Virus record (IMG/VR): IMGVR_UViG_3300033067_002375
Location: 1 to 39,051 of that record
Origin: a virus
Lineage: Duplodnaviria; Caudoviricetes
Length of the DNA: 39,051 nucleotides
Strand: one strand, 5' to 3'
Within the stretch, counting starts at the first letter, position 1. Each line of letters starts with the position of its first letter. Position numbers and translations under genes: made by a program. Below, piece after piece: positions 2,848-38,429 of this stretch. Below the pieces are notes generated by a model, which was given only the letters and a program-made list of their open reading frames with translations, was not told the origin of the DNA and ran no database searches.

Positions 2848-3855
2848 TTATGCTTGCAAAATGCCATAACCAAATAAAGATGGCTCATGTTTTTTGCAGC
2901 TATTTTTCATTTTTTGTACTACTTTTTTGTTATCCGATAAACCAGAAATTTCTTTATGGCCTGCAAATATGCCTGCTGCCGTTGGCGCACTAAACGAAGT
3001 GCCATAAGCTAATTGCACACCACCTGCATTATTAACTACATTTTGGCCGTAACCGCCACAAACAAATGTTACGCCCAATAAATTAGTATAATGATAGGTA
3101 TTATCTTCTTTTACAGCTCCTACAGCCACCGCATTTATTTTAGATGCCGGCGATACAACTGTTGATACCGATCCTCCGCTTGCATTACCTGCTGAGCAAA
3201 AAGGAATACAATTATTATCTAATAAAGAATTTATTAAAGACTGAACGGTTGCATCATCAAATTGCAGCGGCATTACTAAACAATCTAAGCCCGATGTAAT
3301 GGCCTGATTTACACCTGCCGCAAAAGAGGTAATGGTAATACCTCCTGCATCGTCCACAACTTTTATTGTATAAAAATCAACATCATTAACCACACCTTTG
3401 TGTGAGCCTACCAAACTTTTTATTACAGATGTTACCATTGTGCCATGATTAAAATTATCCAACACTCCCGGATTGGCATCTGCAAAATTAAAATTGTTTG
3501 AAAACGATAAGCCTAACACATCGTTTCTGCCGGTGTCTAAATCTCCAATTTTTACATCTCTTCCGGTAACGTTTAGCAACTCTAATTTTCGGGTGTTCGA
3601 TTGGCGTTTTATGTAGTCACCTGCCAATAGTGTGCATTTCTTCTTTTCGTCGGATGATAAGGTATAGCCATTGGCAATTAAAATTTTCTTTTCCTGCTCA
3701 TTTATATCCAATGAACAAAACTCTATTTTATCAAAAGAAAGGTTATGGCTTTTGGTAATAACAATATCTTGCGCCAATGTTGTATTGGCATCAACATATA
3801 CCCTGCCCAATAATTCTTTAGCTTTTTGCTCGTTAATATTTATTAAATACCTCAT
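2848..3855 (-). CDS. Subtilisin-like (S8) serine protease
   Basis: Catalytic motifs in order: GDLDTG (Asp), NHGT (His), SAGN (oxyanion Asn), GTSFSAP (Ser). Confidence 0.9.
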   Translation of the reverse strand: MRYLININEQKAKELLGRVYVDANTTLAQDIVITKSHNLSFDKIEFCSLDINEQEKKILIANGYTLSSDEKKKCTLLAGDYIKRQSNTRKLELLNVTGRDVKIGDLDTGRNDVLGLSFSNNFNFADANPGVLDNFNHGTMVTSVIKSLVGSHKGVVNDVDFYTIKVVDDAGGITITSFAAGVNQAITSGLDCLVMPLQFDDATVQSLINSLLDNNCIPFCSAGNASGGSVSTVVSPASKINAVAVGAVKEDNTYHYTNLLGVTFVCGGYGQNVVNNAGGVQLAYGTSFSAPTAAGIFAGHKEISGLSDNKKVVQKMKNSCKKHEPSLFGYGILQA

Positions 3856-6011: not shown

Positions 6012-6799
6012 TATAATTTCATTATAAAAAGTGATACAATATAAGGTTGCAAATTATTTACAGGTGTACTGGCTCCTGGCCAAGCCTGCATGGTTTTATT
6101 ATTAAATTCACCTGCACTACTATCACCACTTGTAAAAGTATCTACACCATCCACTTTTACTAATCCTTGTGTTGCAGGTAGGCTTGGTAAGTTAGCTGGC
6201 AAAAGGGTATTTGTTTTTGTGCCGCCTGTTTCACCCATTAAATCAAATTCGGTTTGCGAACTGTCTAATTGTACAGATACTTTTCCTTGCCTGTCTTTGG
6301 TTCCGTTGTTGCCGTTACAAATAGCCCAACCAACACGGTTGTTAATGCCCAACCCGGTGCCGTCAAAATTGGCTGCTATGTAAGCAGCATCACAATCAAT
6401 TTCTTTTATATCGCCATACTGCCATGTTTCTTTTATTGTAGGCACTCTTTTTAAGTTGCTATATTGGTAAGGGCCGCCAACACTAAACCGGGCAACTCTT
6501 TCAAACCTGGTTATCTTGCCTAATCCATCGTGAAAAACAAGTGTTTCGCTGGTTTCATCAATAATAAATTCGCCACTACCAATGGCTCCACCAACAAATG
6601 GCAACAGCTCATTATTAATGCTTATCCAACCTCCCGATACATTGCCCCCTGCCTCAACCATGCCGCTTATAATAACACTATCGCCAATTAAAGCGCTCAT
6701 TGCTGCAAATGCTCCCCGGTAACTTACCTGCATCCAATCCAAGTCTTTTTGACTTAGTGGGTAACCACCTAAATATGTAAGCTGTAATCTTTTGTTCAT
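6011..6799 (-). CDS. Tail fibre protein with tail-collar-like domain
   Basis: 'GWAICNGNNGT.D..G...GETGG...L...NLP...NNLQPYIV' collar-type motif; follows the baseplate wedge genes. Confidence 0.75.
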   Translation of the reverse strand: MNKRLQLTYLGGYPLSQKDLDWMQVSYRGAFAAMSALIGDSVIISGMVEAGGNVSGGWISINNELLPFVGGAIGSGEFIIDETSETLVFHDGLGKITRFERVARFSVGGPYQYSNLKRVPTIKETWQYGDIKEIDCDAAYIAANFDGTGLGINNRVGWAICNGNNGTKDRQGKVSVQLDSSQTEFDLMGETGGTKTNTLLPANLPSLPATQGLVKVDGVDTFTSGDSSAGEFNNKTMQAWPGASTPVNNLQPYIVSLFIMKL

Positions 6800-6801
6800 G
6801 G

Positions 6802-7290
6802 TTAATAAATTTCTATTTTATAGCGTTTGCCGCAAATTTTTGTTGCTATCATAGCCCTCATTTCATTTTCGTTAAATGCCACACTTACCGGCACAAAAAC
6901 AATAAAATCAAAAAGTAAATCGCCAACTATTTCGCCCTCAGTAAAAACATATACAGGCTCAGCTTCAATATCCTGATGCAAATACAATGGCTGCAACTCT
7001 GCATCCTGATAAATGTATAATGGCTGTTCTCCATCGGGGCCATCATCAATATAAATACGACGGGCAATTGCATCAAACCTGTCGTTTAAAAATGCTTCCA
7101 TATAGCATGTTTGCCAGTTCATTTTTACCTCATACTTTTTTGCAATCCTGTAAGTCATAAACTCATTATGCAATTTAATAACAGGCTCAAAACAAGCCTT
7201 TACAAAAGCCATTAATACAGCAGTTCTTAACCGTATAGGCACAAGCCATTTAGCTAACAGGTAAAATTGTATGTTAAAAAAATTAAACAT
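6802..7290 (-). CDS. Baseplate wedge protein (P2 gpI / Mu gp48-like)
   Basis: Position after the J-like gene; 'LNDRFD...DFIVFVP' pattern. Confidence 0.6.
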   Translation of the reverse strand: MFNFFNIQFYLLAKWLVPIRLRTAVLMAFVKACFEPVIKLHNEFMTYRIAKKYEVKMNWQTCYMEAFLNDRFDAIARRIYIDDGPDGEQPLYIYQDAELQPLYLHQDIEAEPVYVFTEGEIVGDLLFDFIVFVPVSVAFNENEMRAMIATKICGKRYKIEIY

Positions 7291-8515: not shown

Positions 8516-8819
8516 CTATAAATAAATTATCTACACTCGAAAATTTTATATCATTTACTCTTTGCTCATCCAATTCAAGATTGATCCTTATTTTACGCCG
8601 CCATTCCAAATAATCATTATCCAGTAAAATATCTTCAATACCAACACCCAAAACAGGTTCCTGCTTAAACTCACCTTTCCTACTGATTAATATCAGCCCT
8701 GTATTTTGATTAATGGTTTTCCCTATTAAAACACCACTTACAATTTTGCCGGTTGCATCCCTTTCCGGTTGCACCTTTAATTCAAAATCATCATTCAATA
8801 AAAAACCTGTTCCCCTCAT
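8493..8819 (-). CDS. gp25/gpW-like baseplate protein (sheath initiator)
   Basis: 'KGEFKQEPVLGVGI' resembles the gp25-family GE...P..G motif; synteny. Confidence 0.65.
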   Translation of the reverse strand: MRGTGFLLNDDFELKVQPERDATGKIVSGVLIGKTINQNTGLILISRKGEFKQEPVLGVGIEDILLDNDYLEWRRKIRINLELDEQRVNDIKFSSVDNLFIDADYNRS

Positions 8820-9040
8820 TATGTAATTTTTACAGTTATTGGGCCTGATGCTATTACCGCTGTTGCACCTGATTGTTGCAGGCTGCCTGCTTGATAAACA
8901 CCATCCCCACTTTTTACAAAAGCATCTATCAGGTTGCTAAGCCTGGTTGCATATTCAGCATCTGAATTTGTATCACGGGTTCTCATATCCGTTAATAAAT
9001 TTTCAATCCCTGTTTTTAATGTTGCTTTATCTAATGGCAT
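8819..9040 (-). CDS. Small baseplate-region protein
   Basis: 73 aa, tightly packed in the operon after the spike gene. Confidence 0.6.
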   Translation of the reverse strand: MPLDKATLKTGIENLLTDMRTRDTNSDAEYATRLSNLIDAFVKSGDGVYQAGSLQQSGATAVIASGPITVKIT

Positions 9041-9043
9041 AAC

Positions 9044-9547
9044 CTATTTTAAAATCATTTTAAATGTGGTTTCAAAATCAACAATACCAACCATTGTGGT
9101 AGGTATTGGGCCAGATGATACACCCGATGGCGTAAACTCTTTGAAATTCTTTAGCAGATCGGCCAGCTTTTGAAAAACGGTTTTTAATGAAGTACTGCCG
9201 TTTTCAATTTTAACTTTACCATCTGTACTATCAATAAGCACTTTTAAACCATCCTGCTCATATTGCAGCTTTGCCACCTCATCAACCTTTAACACCGCCA
9301 AATCTTTCAAATCGCCTGTTAAAGAGCCAATCAATACCATTGTACCAATCTTTGGCTCAATAATAATCTTATTGGTTTCGCCATTAATGGTTGCCTTTAA
9401 CCTTACCTCATCCAGCTCTATGGTATCAACCATTACAGTGCAGCTCTCACCATCTACACTTACCACTTTCGCATTAAAAAGCGGCAATGCCTCAGTGCCT
9501 TTATTCAAACCCCGTAATTGATCAGCCAGCTTTTTATATCTATCCAT
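9044..9547 (-). CDS. Baseplate spike protein (gpV / Mu gp45-like)
   Basis: OB-fold-like N-terminus (AKVVSVDGESCTV...PKIGTMVLI), beta-rich C-terminus ending TPSGVSSGP. Confidence 0.7.
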   Translation of the reverse strand: MDRYKKLADQLRGLNKGTEALPLFNAKVVSVDGESCTVMVDTIELDEVRLKATINGETNKIIIEPKIGTMVLIGSLTGDLKDLAVLKVDEVAKLQYEQDGLKVLIDSTDGKVKIENGSTSLKTVFQKLADLLKNFKEFTPSGVSSGPIPTTMVGIVDFETTFKMILK

Positions 9548-10553
9548 TTCCTATTAACTTTATACCTAATTGTACTTTTCTAACCCCGCCACCACTGCCA
9601 TCCACTGTTGTAGTAACAGCAGTGGTATAATAAGCGCCGTTTTTAAATTCATAATCTTCATCCTCAATATGGGCCGTGTAACCAGGTTCAATAAAAGGAA
9701 TAAGCCATGTTGTAATTGATCCCTCAAACCCTTCATACATGCGGCGCTTAAATTCTGCATCTGCAAGTATCTGCATGGCACTTTTGCTGAGGCCATACCC
9801 TTTAATGGTTATTTTATCGCCACCCGTTGTACCACTGGTAACAACTATCTTTTTTCCATCCTTACCGGTGTTTTCCACTTCCACTTCAAGTTTTTTATCT
9901 TCCTTGCTTTTATATTTCAGGTCGCTTTTTTCAATATTTTGCTGAAAGGAATAGTAAACCTCACCATGCTTTTCTATGTATGGGGGATGGATATTTAAAA
10001 CACCAACACCGGCAGCATTTTTTTTGATGTATATGTTACCCTTTGTTTCATCCTGCAACTTTTTTAGTACATCGTATGCAGTTGCTTTGCTGATAACAAA
10101 TTTGTCGTAGTTGATAGTCAAAGAGCAATTTATCAGTAAACCACATTTGGTTTCACTTACCAGGTATTCAGCAATTTGTTTTACGGTTGCATTTTTAAAT
10201 TGCTTATCTGCCACCGCCTTCCGCATCAAAAAAAGATCATCTTCACAATTAAAAATGATACTTCCATCATCAGTGCCTATGTTTAGCAAATACCCTTCAA
10301 ACTCAGGAACATCCTCTTTGCCAAACAAATCTTTATCATACCCCAAAAAAACTTTTACTTTATCGCCCCGCTTTACCTTACCCTCAATCTCATTTATCCG
10401 GTCGGCCTTTATGGCTTTGTTGTTTACTGTAGCAGGCAATTTTATTGTACAGGTATCAGCCAGCAGGTCAACCGATTTATGTATATCAACATTATCCAGC
10501 ATGCCCAACCTGTAATCACCAACCTCAATATGCCAGCTTATTTTAAAGTACAT
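9540..10553 (-). CDS. Baseplate hub protein (gpD / Mu gp44-like)
   Basis: 337 aa, 'DTCTIKLP...VFLGYD...EFEGY' pattern; synteny. Confidence 0.75.
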   Translation of the reverse strand: MYFKISWHIEVGDYRLGMLDNVDIHKSVDLLADTCTIKLPATVNNKAIKADRINEIEGKVKRGDKVKVFLGYDKDLFGKEDVPEFEGYLLNIGTDDGSIIFNCEDDLFLMRKAVADKQFKNATVKQIAEYLVSETKCGLLINCSLTINYDKFVISKATAYDVLKKLQDETKGNIYIKKNAAGVGVLNIHPPYIEKHGEVYYSFQQNIEKSDLKYKSKEDKKLEVEVENTGKDGKKIVVTSGTTGGDKITIKGYGLSKSAMQILADAEFKRRMYEGFEGSITTWLIPFIEPGYTAHIEDEDYEFKNGAYYTTAVTTTVDGSGGGVRKVQLGIKLIGNG

Positions 10554-11148
10554 TCGTGTTACGCTTTATTAACAGTTCCCAATCATCATCTGAGTAAGCT
10601 TTAAAACTGAAATTTTGATTTTCAGGCCCTTTGGTAAAGGGTAAGCTTCTATCTTCAATTACTATCCGTGTAATGCCCAATCTTTCCAGCGCCGGGCAGG
10701 CAACATCTAAAGGCTCAGTGGCTGTGCAATACTTTATCAGTTGTTTTAAATCTGCATCAGGAAAATTTTCGGTGCCCGGATTGGTTAAAGTACCCTGTAC
10801 ATTTATTACCCAATCATCCTCAGTCCAATATTCCTTTATGCTGCCCCTGCCTTTTTTTTTGGCAACATTTCGTTTTATCAAAATGCTTTTACCATCTATA
10901 CTTATCAGTGGTTCCACCGGAAACAACCACCAATCACTTTCACTTTTAAGTTTTACTTTTAAAGGCACCACCTGCGGTGTACCAAAAATTGTTTGCTCTA
11001 TTTTATCGCCAACGGTTGTTTCTAAACTATCAGCATCAATACTACCAGCCTTAGCAATGGTAGCAGGATTGCTTTTTATAAATGGTGGTAGCGGCGGCAA
11101 AACATGCGGCCTCAATATTTTATTTAATATGTAATCACTACCTGCCAT
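10543..11148 (-). CDS. Tail tube initiator-like protein (DUF6046-like)
   Basis: 'GSIKEYWTEDDWVINVQG...AYSDD'; directly after the tape measure gene. Confidence 0.6.
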   Translation of the reverse strand: MAGSDYILNKILRPHVLPPLPPFIKSNPATIAKAGSIDADSLETTVGDKIEQTIFGTPQVVPLKVKLKSESDWWLFPVEPLISIDGKSILIKRNVAKKKGRGSIKEYWTEDDWVINVQGTLTNPGTENFPDADLKQLIKYCTATEPLDVACPALERLGITRIVIEDRSLPFTKGPENQNFSFKAYSDDDWELLIKRNTNVL

Positions 11149-11159
11149 ATTCGCTTTAT

Positions 11160-12980
11160 TTATTCTGCTATAGCCTGGCTCATTGCTATGGCCCGGCTCA
11201 TTTCATCTACTATAATATCTCTTATCTTTTCAGCACCTTCCTTAATGTTATTTGAAACCACTTCAAGTCTTTCAATTTGCTTACCAATGTTAATATGGAT
11301 GGTGGTGTTTTTGGTACCACCTGTTGCCACCGTTTCGCTTTTGCTTTTACCGGAAGCATCCTTACCTGATGTTGATGAAAAATTAGTATTTACCGGTTGC
11401 CCGTTTAACGATGGCTTAGCAATGCCCAATTTTTCTTTTATATCATTTCCAAAATCTTTAATGCCTTTTCCATTGTCTTTTAATCCTATTTTATTCCACG
11501 AATCCGCAGCCATTATGGTATATTCTGCAAGCTTGCCTTTGCTTTCTGCAATTTGCTTGGCACGTTCATTGGCCTGTTCATCCAGTTTTTTCAACCCGGC
11601 ATTGGCACCATCTTCATCCCACAGGCTTTTAAATTTGTACCAGGCTTTTTGCATCAACTCTACGCCACTTAAAAAACCATCTTGCACATAAAGCCATATC
11701 AGGTAAAAACTTTCTTTAAATCCTTTCCAGCTATAACTTAAATAATTCACCAAGTTTTTCCATGCATCACCCCAACCATTGTAGCGATAAATGATGTAAG
11801 CTATAACAGCAGCAAAAGCAATAATGAGTGCTATGATGATGCCGATAGGATTTGCATACATGGCAGCATTTATAAGCCATTGAGCGCCCTCCCAAAGAAG
11901 TGTTACGGCGGTAATTGCCAATGTCATGCTACGCATAATTATCATAGCACCAACAATACCCATAATGCCAGCAGTAAGCAATAGCACAAACCAATTACCC
12001 TCTTTAATTTTATTGTACCATCCCTGAAAAAATCCAATAACATAACCAATAACATCAATCAGGTAAAAGAAAATATTACCAACAGATTCAATAATTGGTT
12101 TAAGCACTGATAAGATTTTAGGGGTAGCATCTACAAATCGCTGGATGTACTGTATTCCTTTTTCCATGAAAGGCTGCATTGCTTCACCTGTATCGGCCAT
12201 AAATTTTTTAAATCCATCTCTTAAAGTGCTTAGCAAACCGCCCATTGTTTTGCTTTGCTTTTCACTTGCACCATAATACAGGCCACCTTTTTGATTTGCC
12301 ATTTCCAGTGCTTTGGAAAGCTGGCCGTAACTAACCGTCATATCCTTAACCTGGTCAACACTTTTGCCGGTTGCTTTGGCAAGCAATGCGTAAATATTTA
12401 TACCGGCAAAACCAAATTGCTTAATATCCATAGCAGTGGCGCTGCCAATATTTTTTATCTGTTGCAGGTTTGCACCCATTCTTTCCAGTACAGCATCGTT
12501 ACCACCTACAGCGGCAACAGCGTTTGAAAGGTTAAGTACATCCTGCCGGGCAGCATCGGCGTTCATACCGGTACTTATAAGGCCCCGGTTTGCGCTAAGT
12601 AATGCGTCTAAACCAAAAGGGGTTGCTGCTGCATCCTTTTCAATTTGTGCATACACATTTTTTGCATTATCGCCTAAGAAAGTAGTGAGGCCAACAATAT
12701 CCTGTTCACGTTTTATATAACCATCCACACTGCCGCTAAAAAATTCGTTTATAACCCCGCCAAACTTTGCAATGCCCTGAGCATACAGGTTACCCAATGC
12801 TATATTAAAACGGGTAAGGCCGCCTGTGGCAGCTTTACTAAATGATCCATCCAGCTTGTTAACCTGATCTGTAAGTTTTTTAGTATTATTGAATGTATCA
12901 GACGAAACACCCGTAACCTTTTTTAAAGGATCAGATATTTTATCTTTCAACGTTAATATGTATTCTAAAAACTTACTCAT
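11160..12980 (-). CDS. Tail tape measure protein
   Basis: 606 aa, helical and Ala/Gly-rich, 'AAATPFGL' tape-measure motif, hydrophobic segment 'NAAMYANPIGIIIALI'. Confidence 0.9.
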   Translation of the reverse strand: MSKFLEYILTLKDKISDPLKKVTGVSSDTFNNTKKLTDQVNKLDGSFSKAATGGLTRFNIALGNLYAQGIAKFGGVINEFFSGSVDGYIKREQDIVGLTTFLGDNAKNVYAQIEKDAAATPFGLDALLSANRGLISTGMNADAARQDVLNLSNAVAAVGGNDAVLERMGANLQQIKNIGSATAMDIKQFGFAGINIYALLAKATGKSVDQVKDMTVSYGQLSKALEMANQKGGLYYGASEKQSKTMGGLLSTLRDGFKKFMADTGEAMQPFMEKGIQYIQRFVDATPKILSVLKPIIESVGNIFFYLIDVIGYVIGFFQGWYNKIKEGNWFVLLLTAGIMGIVGAMIIMRSMTLAITAVTLLWEGAQWLINAAMYANPIGIIIALIIAFAAVIAYIIYRYNGWGDAWKNLVNYLSYSWKGFKESFYLIWLYVQDGFLSGVELMQKAWYKFKSLWDEDGANAGLKKLDEQANERAKQIAESKGKLAEYTIMAADSWNKIGLKDNGKGIKDFGNDIKEKLGIAKPSLNGQPVNTNFSSTSGKDASGKSKSETVATGGTKNTTIHINIGKQIERLEVVSNNIKEGAEKIRDIIVDEMSRAIAMSQAIAE

Positions 12981-24338: not shown

Positions 24339-24830
24339 ATGGATATTCTTTTAGGTGATATACAGGAAAGGCTAAGTATCGAAGTAAGCCAGCTTAAGTA
24401 TATAGATGAGGATTGGGGGCAACTGGATGATTACAGCCCCAATTTTCCGGTGCAATGGCCCTGCTGCCTTGTTGATTGCTTTACTGCTAATTATGAGAAT
24501 GCCGGGAAAAATACCCAATTGGGTTTGGCAACGGTACGAGTTTTAATTGCTGATGTAAAGCTCACTAATAGCAGCAAGCAGGCACCATCCGGGCAAAAAA
24601 CACAAAGCAAAAGTTTTTACCTGCTGATGAAAGATATTTATAAGGCATTACAGGGATGGGCGGGCCATGATCATTACAGCAAGCTTATACGCATAAGAGA
24701 GGGCAGGATAAAACGAAATGATGGTGTAAGGGCGCATGAAATGTTATTTACTGTGGAAATAAAAGATACCAGCGCCATGCCTGTACTTACAATACTTACA
24801 GCACCTGATATAATATTTGAACAGCTTTAA
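24339..24830 (+). CDS. Tail terminator-like protein (Mu gp37-like)
   Basis: 'YIDEDWGQL...PVQWPCCLVD...IYKALQGW'; last gene of the block. Confidence 0.65.
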   Translation: MDILLGDIQERLSIEVSQLKYIDEDWGQLDDYSPNFPVQWPCCLVDCFTANYENAGKNTQLGLATVRVLIADVKLTNSSKQAPSGQKTQSKSFYLLMKDIYKALQGWAGHDHYSKLIRIREGRIKRNDGVRAHEMLFTVEIKDTSAMPVLTILTAPDIIFEQL

Positions 24831-25039
24831 ACTGCAAATAAATTAAGCTGATTTTTTGGCAGGGATGATATTGGGGTACCTTTAATGTACATCCATGTAC
24901 GGTAACTTATGTATATATTATGTTTGGGAAAAACATTGCGTACAATGGAGGTATCAGGCACATCGTCATTTTTGTGATGGTTATATATCGCCACAATATT
25001 TGCTATTCGTTTTAAATGATTATTACGGTTGTATGCCAT
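24827..25039 (-). CDS. Small basic DNA-binding protein, candidate late transcription activator
   Basis: 70 aa from ATG 25039 (MAYNRNN...ISYRTWMYI), HTH-like; position analogous to Mu mor/C; inference. Confidence 0.55.
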   Translation of the reverse strand: MAYNRNNHLKRIANIVAIYNHHKNDDVPDTSIVRNVFPKHNIYISYRTWMYIKGTPISSLPKNQLNLFAV

Positions 25040-25046
25040 TAAGGCA

Positions 25047-25054
25047 CAAAAATA
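25047..25054 (-). promoter_or_regulatory. Bacteroidota -7 promoter element
   Basis: TATTTTTG matches TAnnTTTG, 7 nt upstream of ATG 25039; preceded by an AAAGGCAC/GTGCCTTT hairpin. Confidence 0.5.
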
Positions 25055-25148
25055 AAAAAGGCACCATGTATTTAACACAGTGCCTTTGATAACTTATACA
25101 TCAATATATTAACTACTGTTTTTGTACTTTAAGTAAAATTAAAGTTTA

Positions 25149-26429: not shown

Positions 26430-26765
26430 CTAATAGTTGCAGGTTTTTATTTTTACATTAAATTTAATTTTATACTCTTTTACAGAAATTCGATGCCCAA
26501 GGCGGTGGCGATAAATCCAAAAATCCATTGCCGGGCATGGGTGCGTTATATACAACCCTCCAAAAATGTATTTAAACACAATATCGGTTTGGTTGGGTAT
26601 ATGTATGCTGTTAACACCGATACGGCGTTTTATGCCGTTTTCTGTTACAATAACATGCTTCCAGCCGTTTGCATCTTGCACCCTGTAACTTTTACCCCTG
26701 TAACTTATTGTTTGCACCCTGTAACTTTTTTGTTTTTTAAGTAGTATTTTTTGGATATGTAACAA
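26430..26765 (-). pseudogene. ORF probably decapitated by the cassette array insertion
   Basis: Only a TTG start, directly preceded by TAA and 8 nt from the array junction; contains internal direct repeats. Confidence 0.4.
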
Positions 26766-26788
26766 TTACTGTGTTATGGGCAATACTA

Positions 26789-27574
26789 TCAGTCCGTACA
26801 GCTACAAGCAATTTCTTCATTATGACTATCGACAAAATCAAAAAGCGTTTTTTGTTGCGACAATTCATAAATGGTTCTAAAACTTATATCTTGACGAAAG
26901 CCGTGTTTGCCACGTTTAAATTTTTCTTCCAATTCTGCCCATTCTAAAAACTCTTGTGGGTATTCTTTTGCAAGAGCAATTAGTTTTGGCAATGATTTTA
27001 AAAAACAAAATTTGCAGTTGCCTTTGTAGTTTGGAATTTCAAGTTTAAAAGGCTGTTCATTCCAAAAATTATTTACGTCTGTTTTTGTTATTAATCCATA
27101 ATGCAACGGCAGTAAATGTTTTTCTTTCATTCTATGAACTCTCAAAGGTTCATCATATCTCAATCCTAAAGCTGTTATGTAATCATTAGGCTTGTAACCA
27201 AGTTCAACAGCATATTTTTTTGCAGGGTGTTCTTTAATTCGGCTTGTGCAATAACGCATCATTCTATTTGGTAAATAGCCAGTTTTTTTTATCAATTCAA
27301 TTAAATCCTTTTTTCTCTTTTCAACTTTTATATTATAGTAGCTTTCAAACTGTTCTATAAATTGGTATGTTTCAGGCATTTCTTGACCTGTATCGCCAAA
27401 GAAAAAATGAATATCATTGCCAATTCTATTCGGGTATTTTTCACAGAAATAAGCACCCATTAAAGCAGACGATTGACCGCCAGAAAAGCTAACTAAAATA
27501 GCCGTACTGCCCATAACATCGTATTGCCACAATTTGGGCAGACGTGCTGAAATCAACTGAATATCTTTAATCAT
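26789..27574 (-). CDS. PAPS-reductase-family (PP-loop) protein, cassette 1
   Basis: 'VSFSGGQSS' PP-loop, 'DTGQE', 'RYCTSRIK', 'GNCKFCF', terminal CSC. ATG 27574 preferred; 27514 is an alternative. Confidence 0.85.
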   Translation of the reverse strand: MIKDIQLISARLPKLWQYDVMGSTAILVSFSGGQSSALMGAYFCEKYPNRIGNDIHFFFGDTGQEMPETYQFIEQFESYYNIKVEKRKKDLIELIKKTGYLPNRMMRYCTSRIKEHPAKKYAVELGYKPNDYITALGLRYDEPLRVHRMKEKHLLPLHYGLITKTDVNNFWNEQPFKLEIPNYKGNCKFCFLKSLPKLIALAKEYPQEFLEWAELEEKFKRGKHGFRQDISFRTIYELSQQKTLFDFVDSHNEEIACSCTD

Positions 27575-27643
27575 CTTTTGTATAAATTTTGAACTGGCGA
27601 ACAATGAATGCCCAAACTGACGGCAATACGTAGACCGTTAGTG
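27511..27643 (+). repeat. attC-like site 1
   Basis: CCATAAC-AT-CGTATTGCC..TTTGGGCA ... TGCCCAAA..GGCAATACG-TAGACC-G|TTAGTG; 133 bp. Confidence 0.85.
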
Positions 27644-27649
27644 GCAATG

Positions 27650-28021
27650 CTACCTGTATCGTTCTTTGATAGCTTCTGCCAACTTAGTTGCATCTTCTTT
27701 CGTTCTGTTGCTGTCCAAAATTTCCTTTTTATCTTCTTCGGATAAACTTTCGTCATTGTTCATATCCTGCAATTCTTTCTCGTCAATATCTGTATGGTAA
27801 TCAATAAATTCTTCTGTATTGCAAAACGGGCAAGGCGGATTATCACCACTTGAAATAAGTCCGCTTTCATCGCATTTATCTAAATCCCATAAATAACCAT
27901 CTATACAAGTGGCATCGGGATATGAAGCACCGAAAAAAGGAAATTCAGGACACTGATGAATAACCGCACTGCCACTAACATCGGTTTGGCAAGATTGTGG
28001 CTTTTGTTCTAAATTGTTCAT
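27650..28021 (-). CDS. Cys/acidic-rich hypothetical protein, cassette 2
   Basis: 123 aa with C..., C and CPFC (possible metal binding); N-terminus is encoded inside attC2. Confidence 0.75.
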   Translation of the reverse strand: MNNLEQKPQSCQTDVSGSAVIHQCPEFPFFGASYPDATCIDGYLWDLDKCDESGLISSGDNPPCPFCNTEEFIDYHTDIDEKELQDMNNDESLSEEDKKEILDSNRTKEDATKLAEAIKERYR

Positions 28022-28105
28022 TTGTAATTCTATTTAACGTTAGTAATAAATTTGAGCGATAGTTTTTCAAAGTCCACAACCTCGCCAAGCCGTGAACCGT
28101 TACCT
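27973..28105 (+). repeat. attC-like site 2
   Basis: CACTAAC-AT-CGGTTTGGCAAGATTGTGG ... CCACAACCTCGCCAAGCCG-TGAACC-G|TTACCT; 133 bp. Confidence 0.85.
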
Positions 28106-28279
28106 GCCATTTTTAGACCGACTATCTACATAAAAGATAATCAAGTTAATGACAGAATACATTATGGATAAAACTCCCAATATCCATAGAAAATAATTAT
28201 CGGAAGGTTTTAAATCTCCGTTTGTAACGAGCATCCAAATTGCCCATAATGTGATTAAAATAAATGATATGTATTTCAT
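28100..28279 (-). CDS. Small two-TM membrane protein, cassette 3
   Basis: 59 aa from ATG 28279, with upstream in-frame ATGs inside attC3; stop TAA lies in the cassette junction. Confidence 0.6.
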   Translation of the reverse strand: MKYISFILITLWAIWMLVTNGDLKPSDNYFLWILGVLSIMYSVINLIIFYVDSRSKNGR

Positions 28280-28298
28280 AATTTGAAAATAAAACGGC

Positions 28299-28429
28299 AG
28301 GTAACACGTGTTTTGCGCTATGGCGGGTAAAGTGCAAAATTCAGCGTTAGTGCCTTTGTTGAACATTTGTGTTAAATTTAAAGTGTTGTGCCTTGAAACC
28401 GCCACATCGCAAAGCACCATCCGTTAGTT
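28299..28429 (+). repeat. attC-like site 3
   Basis: AGGTAAC-AC-GTGTTTTGCGCTATGGCGG ... CCGCCACATCGCAAAGCAC-CATCC-G|TTAGTT; 131 bp. Confidence 0.85.
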
Positions 28430-28468
28430 TCTATTTTTTCCCCTTGCCACACATCCGGCTCCGGTTCA

Positions 28469-29305
28469 TCATTGCTTCTGACAATGAGCATTTATGGCCT
28501 CAAATATTTCAAAGGCTATTTGTGGAACTATGGCGTTTCCAAGCCCCTTAAGTCTGTCCACCCTGCCGGGTAGCCCATCAACCACTCTACCCACTCCGGG
28601 TTCAGTTTCCCACCAGCTACTGCATTTAGGGGCAAAGAATTTCGTTCCATCTGTGAACTGCTCCCGTTGTTCTTTGCATCCTGTGTCGTTGGTGTTGGCA
28701 GAAATAAAACCTGATTCGCTAATCCTGCGTTGCTGCTTCCTCCGGCCTTGTTCCTTAATCGTATTGTTCCCGTTTCCGTCAGGTAAAGATTTGATACTTT
28801 CTTTTTGCTCATAATTCCATCTGATGCTGTTGGAGTAAGCCACAATCCATACTCTATCTCTGCGATGCCAAGCGTTTTTACCGCAAGCTGGAATAATAAA
28901 CGTTTCTGTGGTGTAATCCTGTACTTCCAGGTCAGAAAGCACCGTGTCGAGTGCCAAGCCGATGATGCCAGTAACATTTTCGCCAACAATAAAGGACGGC
29001 TTAACCTCTCCGATGATTCTAAGCATTTCTTCCCAGAGGTAACGGTCATCATCTTTGCCTTTTCGTTGCCCGGCAACGCTGAATGGCTGGCAAGGGAATC
29101 CACCGGAAATAATATCAACTGTTCCATAATATTCGTTTGCTTTAAATTCTTTTATATCAGTATATCGTTTTGTATCAGGAAAATTTTTAGCTAATACTTT
29201 TCTACACCATTCATCTTTTTCACAGGAAAATATATTGTTCCATCCGGCCCAATGTGCTGCTAAATCAAATCCTCCTATTCCGCTAAATAAACTTCCGTGA
29301 TTCAT
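28469..29305 (-). CDS. DNA (cytosine-5) methyltransferase, main polypeptide, cassette 4
   Basis: Motifs I FSGIGG, IV GFPCQ, VI ENV, VIII HRRDRVW and X LGNAIVPQ; no clear motif IX. Confidence 0.92.
   Translation of the reverse strand: MNHGSLFSGIGGFDLAAHWAGWNNIFSCEKDEWCRKVLAKNFPDTKRYTDIKEFKANEYYGTVDIISGGFPCQPFSVAGQRKGKDDDRYLWEEMLRIIGEVKPSFIVGENVTGIIGLALDTVLSDLEVQDYTTETFIIPACGKNAWHRRDRVWIVAYSNSIRWNYEQKESIKSLPDGNGNNTIKEQGRRKQQRRISESGFISANTNDTGCKEQREQFTDGTKFFAPKCSSWWETEPGVGRVVDGLPGRVDRLKGLGNAIVPQIAFEIFEAINAHCQKQ
28528..29127 (-). CDS. Nested alternative-frame methyltransferase subunit (TRD / motif IX-bearing)
   Basis: 199-aa ATG-initiated ORF wholly inside the MTase gene, with WLTPT/LPTPT and LNPEWVEWLMGYPAGWT. 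Confidence 0.75.
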   Translation of the reverse strand: MEQLILFPVDSLASHSALPGNEKAKMMTVTSGKKCLESSERLSRPLLLAKMLLASSAWHSTRCFLTWKYRITPQKRLLFQLAVKTLGIAEIEYGLWLTPTASDGIMSKKKVSNLYLTETGTIRLRNKAGGSSNAGLANQVLFLPTPTTQDAKNNGSSSQMERNSLPLNAVAGGKLNPEWVEWLMGYPAGWTDLRGLETP

Positions 29306-29352
29306 AACTCTTTTATAATTTGAAGTGAAGCTCCGCAGCTAAAAAAAACAAA

Positions 29353-29486
29353 AACTAACAAACGGTTTGCTGCAATAGTGGCTTGACAATCCACATTTCA
29401 ACTTTATATCTTTAATCGGCTGCATCAAGTAAATGAACTTTGGTTTTTCAAATTCCACTACTGACAGCAAGCCGCAAACGTTAGCA
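29353..29486 (+). repeat. attC-like site 4
   Basis: AACTAAC-AAA-CGGTTTGCTGCAATAGTGG ... CCACTACTGACAGCAAGCCG-CAAAC-G|TTAGCA; 134 bp. Confidence 0.85.
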
Positions 29487-29825
29487 GTCATTGCTACCAT
29501 ACGTTTCCAAATCGAAAATTTCGCCACATTGGTCTTTATATTGAAATTTAAAATTGTCTGTAAAATTTCTATGCAAAGAAGCACTTGAAAAAACTTTTTT
29601 ACGCTGAACACAACTTGCAATATCTTCAATCTTTGCCCTTCCGAAATCGTGGCTATCACCGCTTAAAGTGAATATTGAATTATCTCTATCAAGTGTCCAC
29701 CATCCACCGCCTTTTACTTTTGTAATATCGGTTGCAAGTTGTTTGTGGTAAGTGCATTTTGCCACTATCAGACAATCGCCTTCTTGTTCGTCTGTTTCTA
29801 TTATGAATTTTGGGAATACATCCAT
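29481..29825 (-). CDS. Hypothetical protein, cassette 5
   Basis: 114 aa (H...GGGWW...GDSHDFG); stop TAA lies in the cassette junction. Confidence 0.75.
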   Translation of the reverse strand: MDVFPKFIIETDEQEGDCLIVAKCTYHKQLATDITKVKGGGWWTLDRDNSIFTLSGDSHDFGRAKIEDIASCVQRKKVFSSASLHRNFTDNFKFQYKDQCGEIFDLETYGSNDC

Positions 29826-29864
29826 TTTTTAATTGAGTTTTGTTGTTAATAATCCGCAACGAAC

Positions 29865-29961
29865 TGCTAACAGGGGTTTTGCGTCATTGCCCCATCAGCA
29901 TTCGTTTTTAATTTGAAAATCCTACAAGGGGCAACGAACGCAAAGCCCCAAAACGTATCAT
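29865..29961 (+). repeat. attC-like site 5 (terminal; right arm joined to phage backbone)
   Basis: TGCTAAC-A-GGGGTTTTGCGTCATTGCCCC ... GGGGCAACGAACGCAAAGCCCC-AAAAC-G|TATCAT; 97 bp. Confidence 0.8.
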
Positions 29962-30803
29962 ATATTGATGTTTGTAAATGCTGGAAATTGCCTTACCTGC
30001 AAATCATCGGGTATTGGTTGCACTTTATCAATCTGTTTAAAGAAATAAGGAACATTTGCCCGTTCACAATGAGCCTTCATATCATAAGCCCATTGCAGGT
30101 TAAAAGGGCGCTTATGATGCCCACTTTCACCTCCCTGTATAATCCAATCAATAGCGCTTCCTGGTTTACCGGTACGGGCATCTTTAGTTAATTCCAACAG
30201 CGGATAAAGATTGATTGGCCCCAACTGTGGTTCAATTGAAAGAAAGCGTTTGCCGTTAACTTCCAATAACTGTAAAACAAGCTTTTCAGCAGTTTCCCGA
30301 TCCACGGGGCTGGTGCCAAACATTACATTTTTTGGTGGCTCTTCTTTCCAATGCTCAGGTATATATTTATTTATATTTGAAGGTCTTTTTGTTAATAACA
30401 GAAACATCAAATTTTCGTACATCTGTAAATCAATGTTATTAAAAAATTCATCTCTTAACAATCCAGTATTAGTTTTCCAAGTACTTGAACTATTGCAATA
30501 AACTTGATTTCCTTTTGCATCAACAACATTCATAGGTTTTTCAAAAATATCCATCATGCTGCCAACAAAAACACGGTGCATTTCCCCTGCCTCTTTTGCC
30601 AACCGTTGGTATTTGTCCAAATCTTTCCAAACTGATTTTATTTTCAAACGGGGTACATTATTTCCCCAATTACTATTTTCAGGATGCCAATGATGGTTTT
30701 GAACCCTTGCATAACAATTATCACAACCAGCATGTACCTCAGTGCATCCATGCCAAAGGTTTGCTGTGTGGTGCGTCCACTCTATTTTTGAATTTTGTGC
30801 CAT
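29958..30803 (-). CDS. DUF5131 / phage gp37-gp68 family (radical-SAM-like) protein
   Basis: 'SKIEWT...GCTEVHAGCDNCYA', 'LLTKRP', 'FLSIEP', 'WIIQGGESG', 'PYFFKQ'. Confidence 0.9.
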   Translation of the reverse strand: MAQNSKIEWTHHTANLWHGCTEVHAGCDNCYARVQNHHWHPENSNWGNNVPRLKIKSVWKDLDKYQRLAKEAGEMHRVFVGSMMDIFEKPMNVVDAKGNQVYCNSSSTWKTNTGLLRDEFFNNIDLQMYENLMFLLLTKRPSNINKYIPEHWKEEPPKNVMFGTSPVDRETAEKLVLQLLEVNGKRFLSIEPQLGPINLYPLLELTKDARTGKPGSAIDWIIQGGESGHHKRPFNLQWAYDMKAHCERANVPYFFKQIDKVQPIPDDLQVRQFPAFTNINI

Positions 30804-37667: not shown

Positions 37668-37700
37668 CAAATGTAGTGGAAATAATAACTAAATACCAAA
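37668..37700 (-). promoter_or_regulatory. Early (lytic) promoter, Bacteroidota consensus
   Basis: TTTG (37700-37697) - 21 nt - TACATTTG (37675-37668), upstream of ATG 37646. Confidence 0.75.
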
Positions 37701-37703
37701 TTT

Positions 37704-38429
37704 ATGGCAGAAAATATCACCACTATTAAACAAAGAATATTACAATTTGCTGGTTATCAACCTGATAACTTAGAAATATTTTTTAAAAAAATAGGCTCTA
37801 CCTATGGAAATTTTAAAGGAAAATCAAAAAATACCGCATTAAGTAGTGATATATTAGCAGTAATTTCCACCTCTTACCCTGAATTAAATATGGATTGGGT
37901 ATTAAACGGAAGGGGAGAAATGTTGAATGGGGTGGAAAATTTATTATTAAATAAACCATCAACTCCTTACGGAATAAAAAAAGCACCATTAGGTAGATTA
38001 ACAAAACGCAGTACAGGAAGTGAATTGATAAAATTTTATGAGGCTGATTTTGCAGCAAGCAGGGATATTGAATTTTTTGATGATGAGGCTTCAATAAAGC
38101 CTGCATACATGATGGATATACCTGAGTTTGCCGGTTGTATTGCTTTTAGAACTTACAGCGATAGTATGGAGCCACTTATTAAAGGAGGGGATATTTTATT
38201 TGCTACAAAAGTGGATGATTGGCGGGATGGATTGGAATATGGGCAGATTTACGGAATAACGAGAATTGATAATCGGAGGCATTTAAAATATATTAGGCGG
38301 GCAGAAAGACATCAAACCCATTTCCTGCTAAAAAGTGAAAATTCTGATATGTACGATGACTTTGATTTGGATAAAATAAAAATTAAGAATATTTGGCTGA
38401 TACATGGCTGGATTAATAAGCGTACATAG
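37704..38429 (+). CDS. CI-like repressor with S24 peptidase domain
   Basis: N-terminal HTH with 'YPELNMDWVLNGRGEM'; 'SDSMEP' catalytic Ser and 'LKYIR' Lys. Confidence 0.88.
   Translation: MAENITTIKQRILQFAGYQPDNLEIFFKKIGSTYGNFKGKSKNTALSSDILAVISTSYPELNMDWVLNGRGEMLNGVENLLLNKPSTPYGIKKAPLGRLTKRSTGSELIKFYEADFAASRDIEFFDDEASIKPAYMMDIPEFAGCIAFRTYSDSMEPLIKGGDILFATKVDDWRDGLEYGQIYGITRIDNRRHLKYIRRAERHQTHFLLKSENSDMYDDFDLDKIKIKNIWLIHGWINKRT

Follow-up and report, generated by a model that had tools for sequence, protein, structure and literature searches.

Why should every gene of a cassette array run against the recombination hairpin of its own cassette? The question is posed by a viral stretch of 39,051 nucleotides (hereafter the window), which is the whole of IMG/VR record IMGVR_UViG_3300033067_002375 and comes from a Mu-like transposable phage, as indicated by a phrog_310 transposase and matches to AAA_22, Phage_Mu_Gam, Portal_Mu, Mu Gp36 and Mu F. 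Within it, at 26774-29955, five attC-like hairpins delimit five cassettes whose genes all lie on the minus strand. We think it probable that the array belongs to an integron-like system of the Bacteroidota, lodged in the accessory part of a Mu-like early region, and that its genes are antisense to their own hairpins because they likely stem from a ‘phage-born’ pool of ordinary phage genes, kept in the direction of phage transcription. The host of the phage is itself probably a member of the Bacteroidota, given the distribution of the hairpin family.

A first-pass annotation, made from the letters of the window, had described a half-site G|TT at the left end of the array (26773), a full site with a foreign right arm at the right end (29955), and cassette genes all on the minus strand with stops in or near the junctions. 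Stem scores and arm pairing support the two ends and the positions of the open reading frames (ORFs) the remainder, with one ORF added: there are six on the minus strand in the five cassettes, cassette 4 carrying two that overlap. From left to right, the array reads as follows.

26757-26786, plus strand: left end of the array, a half-site G|TT at 26773 with the outer arm of cassette 1; no hairpin leftward, and a weak match to the target consensus (attI- or attG-like).
26774-27637, no strand: cassette 1; outer arms match 13 of 14.
26789-27574, minus strand: PAPS-reductase-like gene (PF01507, phrog_424), likely start ATG 27574 within hairpin B (alternatives TTG 27604, ATG 27514).
27514-27640, plus strand: attC-like hairpin B (top strand plus), junction at 27637, from stem score and outer arms.
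27638-28099, no strand: cassette 2; present with different neighbours in loci L297 and L298.
27650-28021, minus strand: 123-amino-acid gene of cassette 2; the sole start codon ahead of its conserved domain is inside hairpin C.
27976-28102, plus strand: attC-like hairpin C, whose family seeded the census, junction at 28099; top-strand TAnnTTTG at 28047.
28100-28423, no strand: cassette 3; outer arms match 13 of 14.
28100-28279, minus strand: 59-amino-acid hydrophobic ORF of cassette 3, its stop being the TAA of the junction; no family found.
28302-28426, plus strand: attC-like hairpin D, junction at 28423, from stem score and outer arms.
28424-29480, no strand: cassette 4; outer arms match 12 of 14.
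28469-29305, minus strand: C5 DNA methyltransferase, large chain (PF00145, TIGR00675, phrog_363).
28528-29127, minus strand: 199-amino-acid ORF nested in a different frame, which likely encodes the small chain of a two-chain methyltransferase resembling M.EcoHK31I (phrog_1008, DNA methyltransferase).
29356-29483, plus strand: attC-like hairpin E, junction at 29480, from stem score and outer arms.
29481-29955, no strand: cassette 5, promoter-proximal; outer arms match 9 of 10.
29481-29825, minus strand: 114-amino-acid conserved protein of cassette 5, its stop being the TAA of the junction; 292 homologs, no Pfam or PHROG family.
29868-29958, plus strand: attC-like hairpin F with foreign right arm G|TATCAT, junction at 29955, 2 nucleotides after the TGA stop of the DUF5131 gene.

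Each hairpin runs from TAAC to G|TT, with stem scores of 39 (B), 38 (C), 37 (D), 35 (E) and 42 (F); in 60 shuffles of the 5-kilobase region the maximum was 29 and no site scored at least 35. Inverted AAC and GTT cores with a stem between them are thus present at five sites that exceed every shuffle, the core of F being GTA rather than GTT. The best partner of each G|TT arm is the inverse arm of the next hairpin to the right (10, 10, 10, 9 and 9 of 10 bases); the arm at 29955 pairs with no arm of the array (3-4 of 10), and is therefore foreign. No hairpin ends at 26773, where the best stem from any AAC scores 14 (null median 15), and no integrase adjoins the half-site there. Minus-strand stops at 26789, 27650, 28100 and 29481 lie 15, 12, 0 and 0 nucleotides from their junctions, that of the methyltransferase (28469) lying 45 nucleotides off. 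The 59-amino-acid ORF of cassette 3, which matches no family, is the weakest gene call of the array: its frame stays open from ATG 28420 through hairpin D, giving 106 amino acids, and matches of this longer ORF in other loci are confined to its hairpin-encoded part. Two candidate features at the left end were rejected, namely a sixth, hairpin-deleted cassette left of 26773, for which a nearby partner arm is absent (best 9 of 11, at 24980), and a set of attI direct repeats, the three CCCTGTAAC repeats at 26681-26728, which we read as coding because they fall within the frame of the gene at 26430-26765, a homolog of which comes after the array in L211. As an aside, relatives of hairpin E (window 29354-29484) occur with other flanks at a summed depth near 900 in sequencing run X2, making this a very common site family.

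Whether these genes are truly antisense depends on which arm carries the crossover, a matter that outer-arm pairing cannot decide; cassettes were therefore sought beside other neighbours. Copies of cassette 2 that are 93-94% identical in protein occur in L297 and L298; both loci have hairpin C and the gene in common with the window, and the likeness stops at both junctions (L297 itself begins at the first). The shared hairpin and these breaks identify plus as the top strand, which makes the genes antisense. More widely, 27 of 60 pairs of like phage cassettes differ in context, and among these the hairpin is kept with the gene on its left in 26 and the reverse in 0 (8 families); like host pairs (n=5) were too few for such mapping, which rests on phage loci. 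The crossover is between G and TT of the right arm, with the site moving with its upstream cassette. The assignment of the top strand in the first-pass annotation is thereby upheld, and neither of the findings that it feared would undo it, a palindromic site left of 26773 or a crossover at the other arm, is borne out: there is no stem there, and the breakpoints are at G|TT.

The same annotation had proposed a comparison of gene orientation at homologous sites in phages and host chromosomes, and the two do differ. A pattern search with hairpin C yielded 75 viral loci and 120 genome loci, the latter from about a quarter of the collection. The gene before this anchor hairpin lies on the minus strand in 63 and the plus strand in 2 of the 75 viral loci, and on the plus strand in 80 and the minus strand in 8 of the 120 genome loci, the remainder being uncalled. 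A dereplicated census of 397 cassettes in 331 clusters gave 93 antisense, 0 sense and 26 uncalled among 119 phage clusters, versus 153 sense, 7 antisense and 54 uncalled among 214 host clusters. Genes that face their attC are thus the rule in hosts, and are found neither in the window (5/5 cassettes antisense) nor among the called phage clusters. Inspected by eye, 8 host antisense calls comprise 6 likely spurious ORFs, 1 phage-type contig of 1 kilobase and 1 that is seemingly real; the counts were left uncorrected. Stops fall at the junction or some 10-16 nucleotides inside the outer arm, and phage and host placements mirror each other.

This polarity agrees with that of the surrounding phage genes, which are mostly co-oriented with the cassette genes (to the left 31 minus, 8 plus and 6 none, n=45; to the right 12, 5 and 2, n=19). 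Among 80 Mu-like relatives found by their Gam protein, all 4 with a callable site direction are antisense. Two related Mu-like phages, L210 and L211, carry different antisense cassettes in the interval occupied by the window array, with the promoter-side end at a stop codon and the distal end at a half-site; the cultured phage P12002L has the same antisense polarity by our mapping. No empty-site relative was found, L208 having other cargo in the array slot: a set of three repeats that vary at adenines, and an ORF resembling a reverse transcriptase (L208 ~8800-11650), by eye a diversity-generating retroelement. A separate observation is a lone antisense hairpin in L218 (7969-9231), followed by a 375-amino-acid ORF that by eye resembles TnpB of IS200/IS605.

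The two pools also differ in what they carry, with the expectation of phage-type cargo holding well. Of 83 phage cassette proteins, 41 match Pfam and 37 are DNA-modification enzymes, versus 25 Pfam matches and 1 methyltransferase for the 69 of 147 host cassette proteins that were searched; among the other host genes are defence-type, resistance-type and metabolic ones. A comparison of 127 cassette proteins from phages with 164 from hosts turned up no shared protein, save for hairpin-encoded N-termini in the 1-kilobase contig L135. A lincosamide nucleotidyltransferase-like gene stands as a sense cassette in a Riemerella record (L080 4826-5647) and a cassette of the beta-lactamase family is present in L104; resistance genes may be among those that the host system moves.

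Some of the phage cargo can be followed outside the arrays. In most of the 24 loci examined (39 homologs were found), the cassette 2 gene occurs ‘free’, lacking a hairpin and beginning at a native start that precedes the conserved domain by 6-7 codons, and its cassette copies bear three different N-terminal extensions; 4 of 5 relatives of the cassette 4 methyltransferase could be examined, all of them without a hairpin. Since such free, hairpin-less homologs exist for both genes, we infer that the cassettes of phages arose from ordinary genes, presumably those of phages themselves. Cassette 4 has a further parallel in M.EcoHK31I, whose small chain is encoded in another frame within the large chain (PMC2836561). 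Here, too, a small-chain frame is nested in the large-chain gene, both ORFs match methyltransferase families, and the nested pair recurs in L057 and L069; the window differs in having no restriction enzyme partner, and the pairing of the two chains is predicted.

If ordinary genes were joined to hairpins, the hairpins appear to have supplied their starts. An ATG on the bottom strand, from which the frame stays open into the cassette, is present in 56 of 61 phage sites of family C versus 16 of 110 host sites, and the phage ATG is preceded by A at -12, -13 and -3, positions at which A is reported to promote initiation in Flavobacterium (PMC6847099). Conversely, a top-strand TAnnTTTG (the -7 promoter motif) is present in 24 of 110 host versus 2 of 61 phage sites of the family. 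The first ATG lies inside the hairpin in 80 of 123 phage genes, a sample biased toward family C, and 5 of 9 picked methyltransferases have no other start ahead of their domain; three close homologs of the PAPS-reductase-like protein start at the Met of ATG 27574. We suggest that start codons inside hairpins are used for translation, and that phage hairpins look to be adapted in mirror image to host hairpins.

What kind of system is this? Classical attC sites have near-symmetric spacers and extrahelical bases. Here the arms pair instead at an offset of 3-4 nucleotides (144 of 150 phage and 194 of 222 host sites). As in integrons, the cassettes are in tandem, separated by folded sites whose cores are AAC and G|TT, the crossover is at G|TT, each hairpin moves with its cassette, a tyrosine recombinase stands beside an attI-like half-site, and host genes face their hairpin. 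The recombinase is another matter, since IntI is defined by an extra domain (10.1101/2022.02.06.479319). None of 32 host genomes has an IntI above the TIGR02249 cut-off; the array-associated recombinase (~350 amino acids) matches the IntI profile in two pieces, skipping positions ~180-237, so that the additional domain is lacking, and an archaeal XerA-type model gives it its best or second-best score. Its gene is found to the left of the anchor hairpin in 12 of 120 host loci (46 of which have 5 kilobases there), and in 11 of the 12 it is co-oriented upstream of the array, a further departure from integrons. Of the 75 viral loci, 5 have it on that side, invariably on the minus strand; where mapped, it adjoins the half-site. 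In phages with a recombinase, cassettes would be read toward it, with new cassettes entering at the far end of the transcript. The array therefore works like an integron cassette array and yet differs in three respects, the IntI domain, site geometry and, in phages, gene direction, with genes antisense and often starting in the hairpin; from the integron framing of the first-pass annotation, the cassette array with folded sites stands and the canonical IntI integron does not.

Three further observations concern this recombinase. In a tree, three phage proteins group weakly (85/63, on long branches), a grouping on which we do not rely. L102 (Ignavibacteriaceae) encodes a short recombinase at 6233-7069 that is divergent from sense cassettes, a classical layout, and sits next to the phage recombinases in the tree. 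At the left ends of the arrays in L006, L017, L071 and L291, which are phage arrays that come with a recombinase, a common half-site motif, TATATA(A/G)TAG|TT, stands just before the recombinase start and is a candidate phage attI.

How might the array be expressed? All genes from 37646 down to 24827 (the early region) are on the minus strand, and the array sits inside that run between the DUF5131 gene and a 111-amino-acid gene. The features that matter are these.

37668-37704, minus strand: candidate early promoter, two TAnnTTTG motifs (at 37675 and 37704) between the repressor and the early genes; motif as in PMC6847099.
31045-31070, minus strand: terminator-like hairpin that follows gam, carries a T run and separates the array from the early promoter region; similar in L208, L210 and L211.
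29958-30803, minus strand: DUF5131 gene (PF07505), the phage flank upstream of the array in transcription.
26430-26765, minus strand: phage flanking gene downstream of the array, not an integrase.

The candidate promoter motifs are 7.7 kilobases upstream of the array, with one further motif within DUF5131 at 30549; no -7 motif was found on the minus strand between 30549 and 25054, and a sigma-70 promoter scan stayed at chance level. Given this and the hairpin after gam, read-through or a second promoter is needed. Public RNA runs contained 6% of the sequence words and gave no expression evidence. That the cassettes would be silent from a host cassette promoter follows from geometry only; they are likely read along with the phage early genes. 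A strong terminator-like hairpin at 25057-25087 on the minus strand, just before an 83-amino-acid gene (24827-25078), is likely the end of the early region.

Taken together, we picture a tyrosine recombinase that lacks the extra domain of IntI and is provided in trans, either by the host or by another phage; it would cut at G|TT and insert cassettes at half-sites, often adjoining a stop codon. Early transcription, through read-through or a second promoter, would then express them, the hairpin loop would act as a translation start, and the pool would amount largely to an anti-restriction, DNA-modifying kit.

Several points weigh against our reading. No recombinase of this kind was found among the 358 ORFs of the window, and the phage would have to borrow one. 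The right junction is G|TA instead of G|TT, and the target motif of the 26773 half-site ranks at the 84th percentile among the 1567 GTT sites of the window, versus above the 99.9th in L210 and L211; the window copy may therefore be eroded. A known family is present in only 2 of the 5 cassettes, and a terminator-like hairpin stands between them and the early promoter. The census was seeded by one hairpin family and used a longest-ORF rule, a crude gene caller that left 22-25% uncalled, on genome loci drawn from part of the collection, as stated above. Finally, selection for co-orientation accounts for where the array sits and not for the antisense beginning of the pool. For the latter, and this is speculation, it is most likely that polarity was fixed early by a target or strand bias, and then ‘locked’ once hairpins took over translation starts.

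The signs of erosion, together with the missing recombinase, would also suit a frozen relic, that is, an array of fixed accessory genes that no longer recombines, drawn from a pool that is itself real; no joint skipping a whole cassette was seen in the contigs of four runs (contigs cannot show absence). We judge this unlikely, since all five stems and outer arms are intact, and since cassette 2, being so close to copies with other neighbours, must have moved recently.

Quite unlikely, in our view, is that polarity follows from target availability only. A TAA-C stop presents a harmless G|TTA on the template strand, which would force the top strand antisense and favour antisense genes, and the promoter-proximal junction is indeed at or near a stop in the window (2 nucleotides), L210 (exact) and L211 (adjacent), while junctions are exactly a stop at 5 of 19 viral array ends versus 52 of 1669 random GTTA. 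The push that such targets give toward this orientation, however, is no more than about twofold (32:14 in the window and 838:501 across 80 Mu-like loci), far below 93:0; host ends are likewise at stops (5 of 37), and a partner may have been missed at some called ends, which would then be internal cassettes. We give no more credence to strand mechanics, in which the recombining hairpin strand must be the one that transcription or replication of the phage leaves single-stranded, namely the coding strand. In integrons it is the bottom strand of attC that recombines, folded as single-stranded DNA. Here folding favours the bottom-strand arms in 56 of 61 phage versus 61 of 116 host sites, and the folding of classical integron attC sites is reported to depend on single-strand exposure (PMC8946536); against this, the Mu-like phage and the unrelated P12002L share the polarity and probably replicate differently, and better folding could reflect selection on messenger RNA. 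That the top strand is misassigned, with the crossover at the left arm and the array canonical on the minus strand, would suit near-palindromic sites (the five in the window fold nearly alike on top and bottom arms, except C) and outer-arm pairing that by itself fits both models, and is nonetheless a negligible prospect, already refuted by the breakpoints (hairpin C moving with the cassette 2 gene; 26 of 27 informative pairs against and none in favour) and at odds with the missing stem left of 26773 and with host genes facing the top strand of the same family.

The system we favour, with phage genes antisense to mobile hairpins, has relatives in the literature. Clusters of attC sites lacking an integrase (CALINs), carrying orphan methyltransferases, have been described in phages by Qi et al. 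2023 (PMC9892861), and resemble the present array in both features. By our own mapping so does their Polaribacter phage P12002L, in which attC1 (30008-30053) has its top strand on plus and the methyltransferase genes lie on minus. The available part of that paper differs in giving divergent attC directions for P12002L, and makes no mention of antisense genes, a phage-host contrast or a Bacteroidota recombinase. It does report that attC1 is the sole site of six not recombined by IntI1 (PMC9892861), a failure that is consistent with a distinct system. Insertion of cassettes into genomic sites outside attI, termed attG (bioRxiv 10.1101/2022.09.11.507474), would similarly account for arrays without an integrase in varied places; it differs in its GWT consensus (the right junction in the window is G|TA) and, in the part of the preprint available, in having no reported strand bias, and, unlike attG, the half-sites here share a common upstream motif ~7-14 nucleotides before G|TT. 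Neither mirrored polarity nor this recombinase turned up in any paper found in the open-access literature, as judged from abstract openings.

A few remaining observations concern the window as a whole. The contigs of run X1, which may be the sample of origin, span most of the array region piecewise with zero differences, which is not independent support. An Rfam scan gave two chance matches only, viral scans with a 136-amino-acid flanking gene and the cassette 1 protein returned zero relatives, and when the array was compared by BLAST with cultured phages, the matches listed (25 of 84 records) covered no more than a portion of the methyltransferase. The tail region encodes a subtilase-family protease (2848-3855) and a collagen-repeat protein (1666-2313).

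A bolder proposal, which we find plausible while stopping short of calling it probable, is that Bacteroidota phages run a mirror-image integron-like system of their own, in which their own genes would be made into cassettes de novo, with the hairpin replacing the gene start as a portable translation start, and in which some phages would encode a short, dedicated recombinase, placed after the array as its final gene; the shared anti-restriction kit would then stand opposite the sense cassettes of the hosts. As the Bacteroidota recombinase falls below IntI cut-offs, IntI-based surveys would likely miss such a system, and since the cultured P12002L has the same layout, tests are practical. How cassettes form is a named open question in the field (PMC8618304), and cassette genes with free relatives, the junction being visible, make formation studiable on natural pairs; if the bolder proposal is true, free-gene and cassette pairs such as that of cassette 2 would give direct access to ‘cassette birth’. 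Because one hairpin family serves two pools of opposite polarity, with no shared cargo in our sample, the findings suggest that phages and their hosts use one recombination chemistry for opposing ends.

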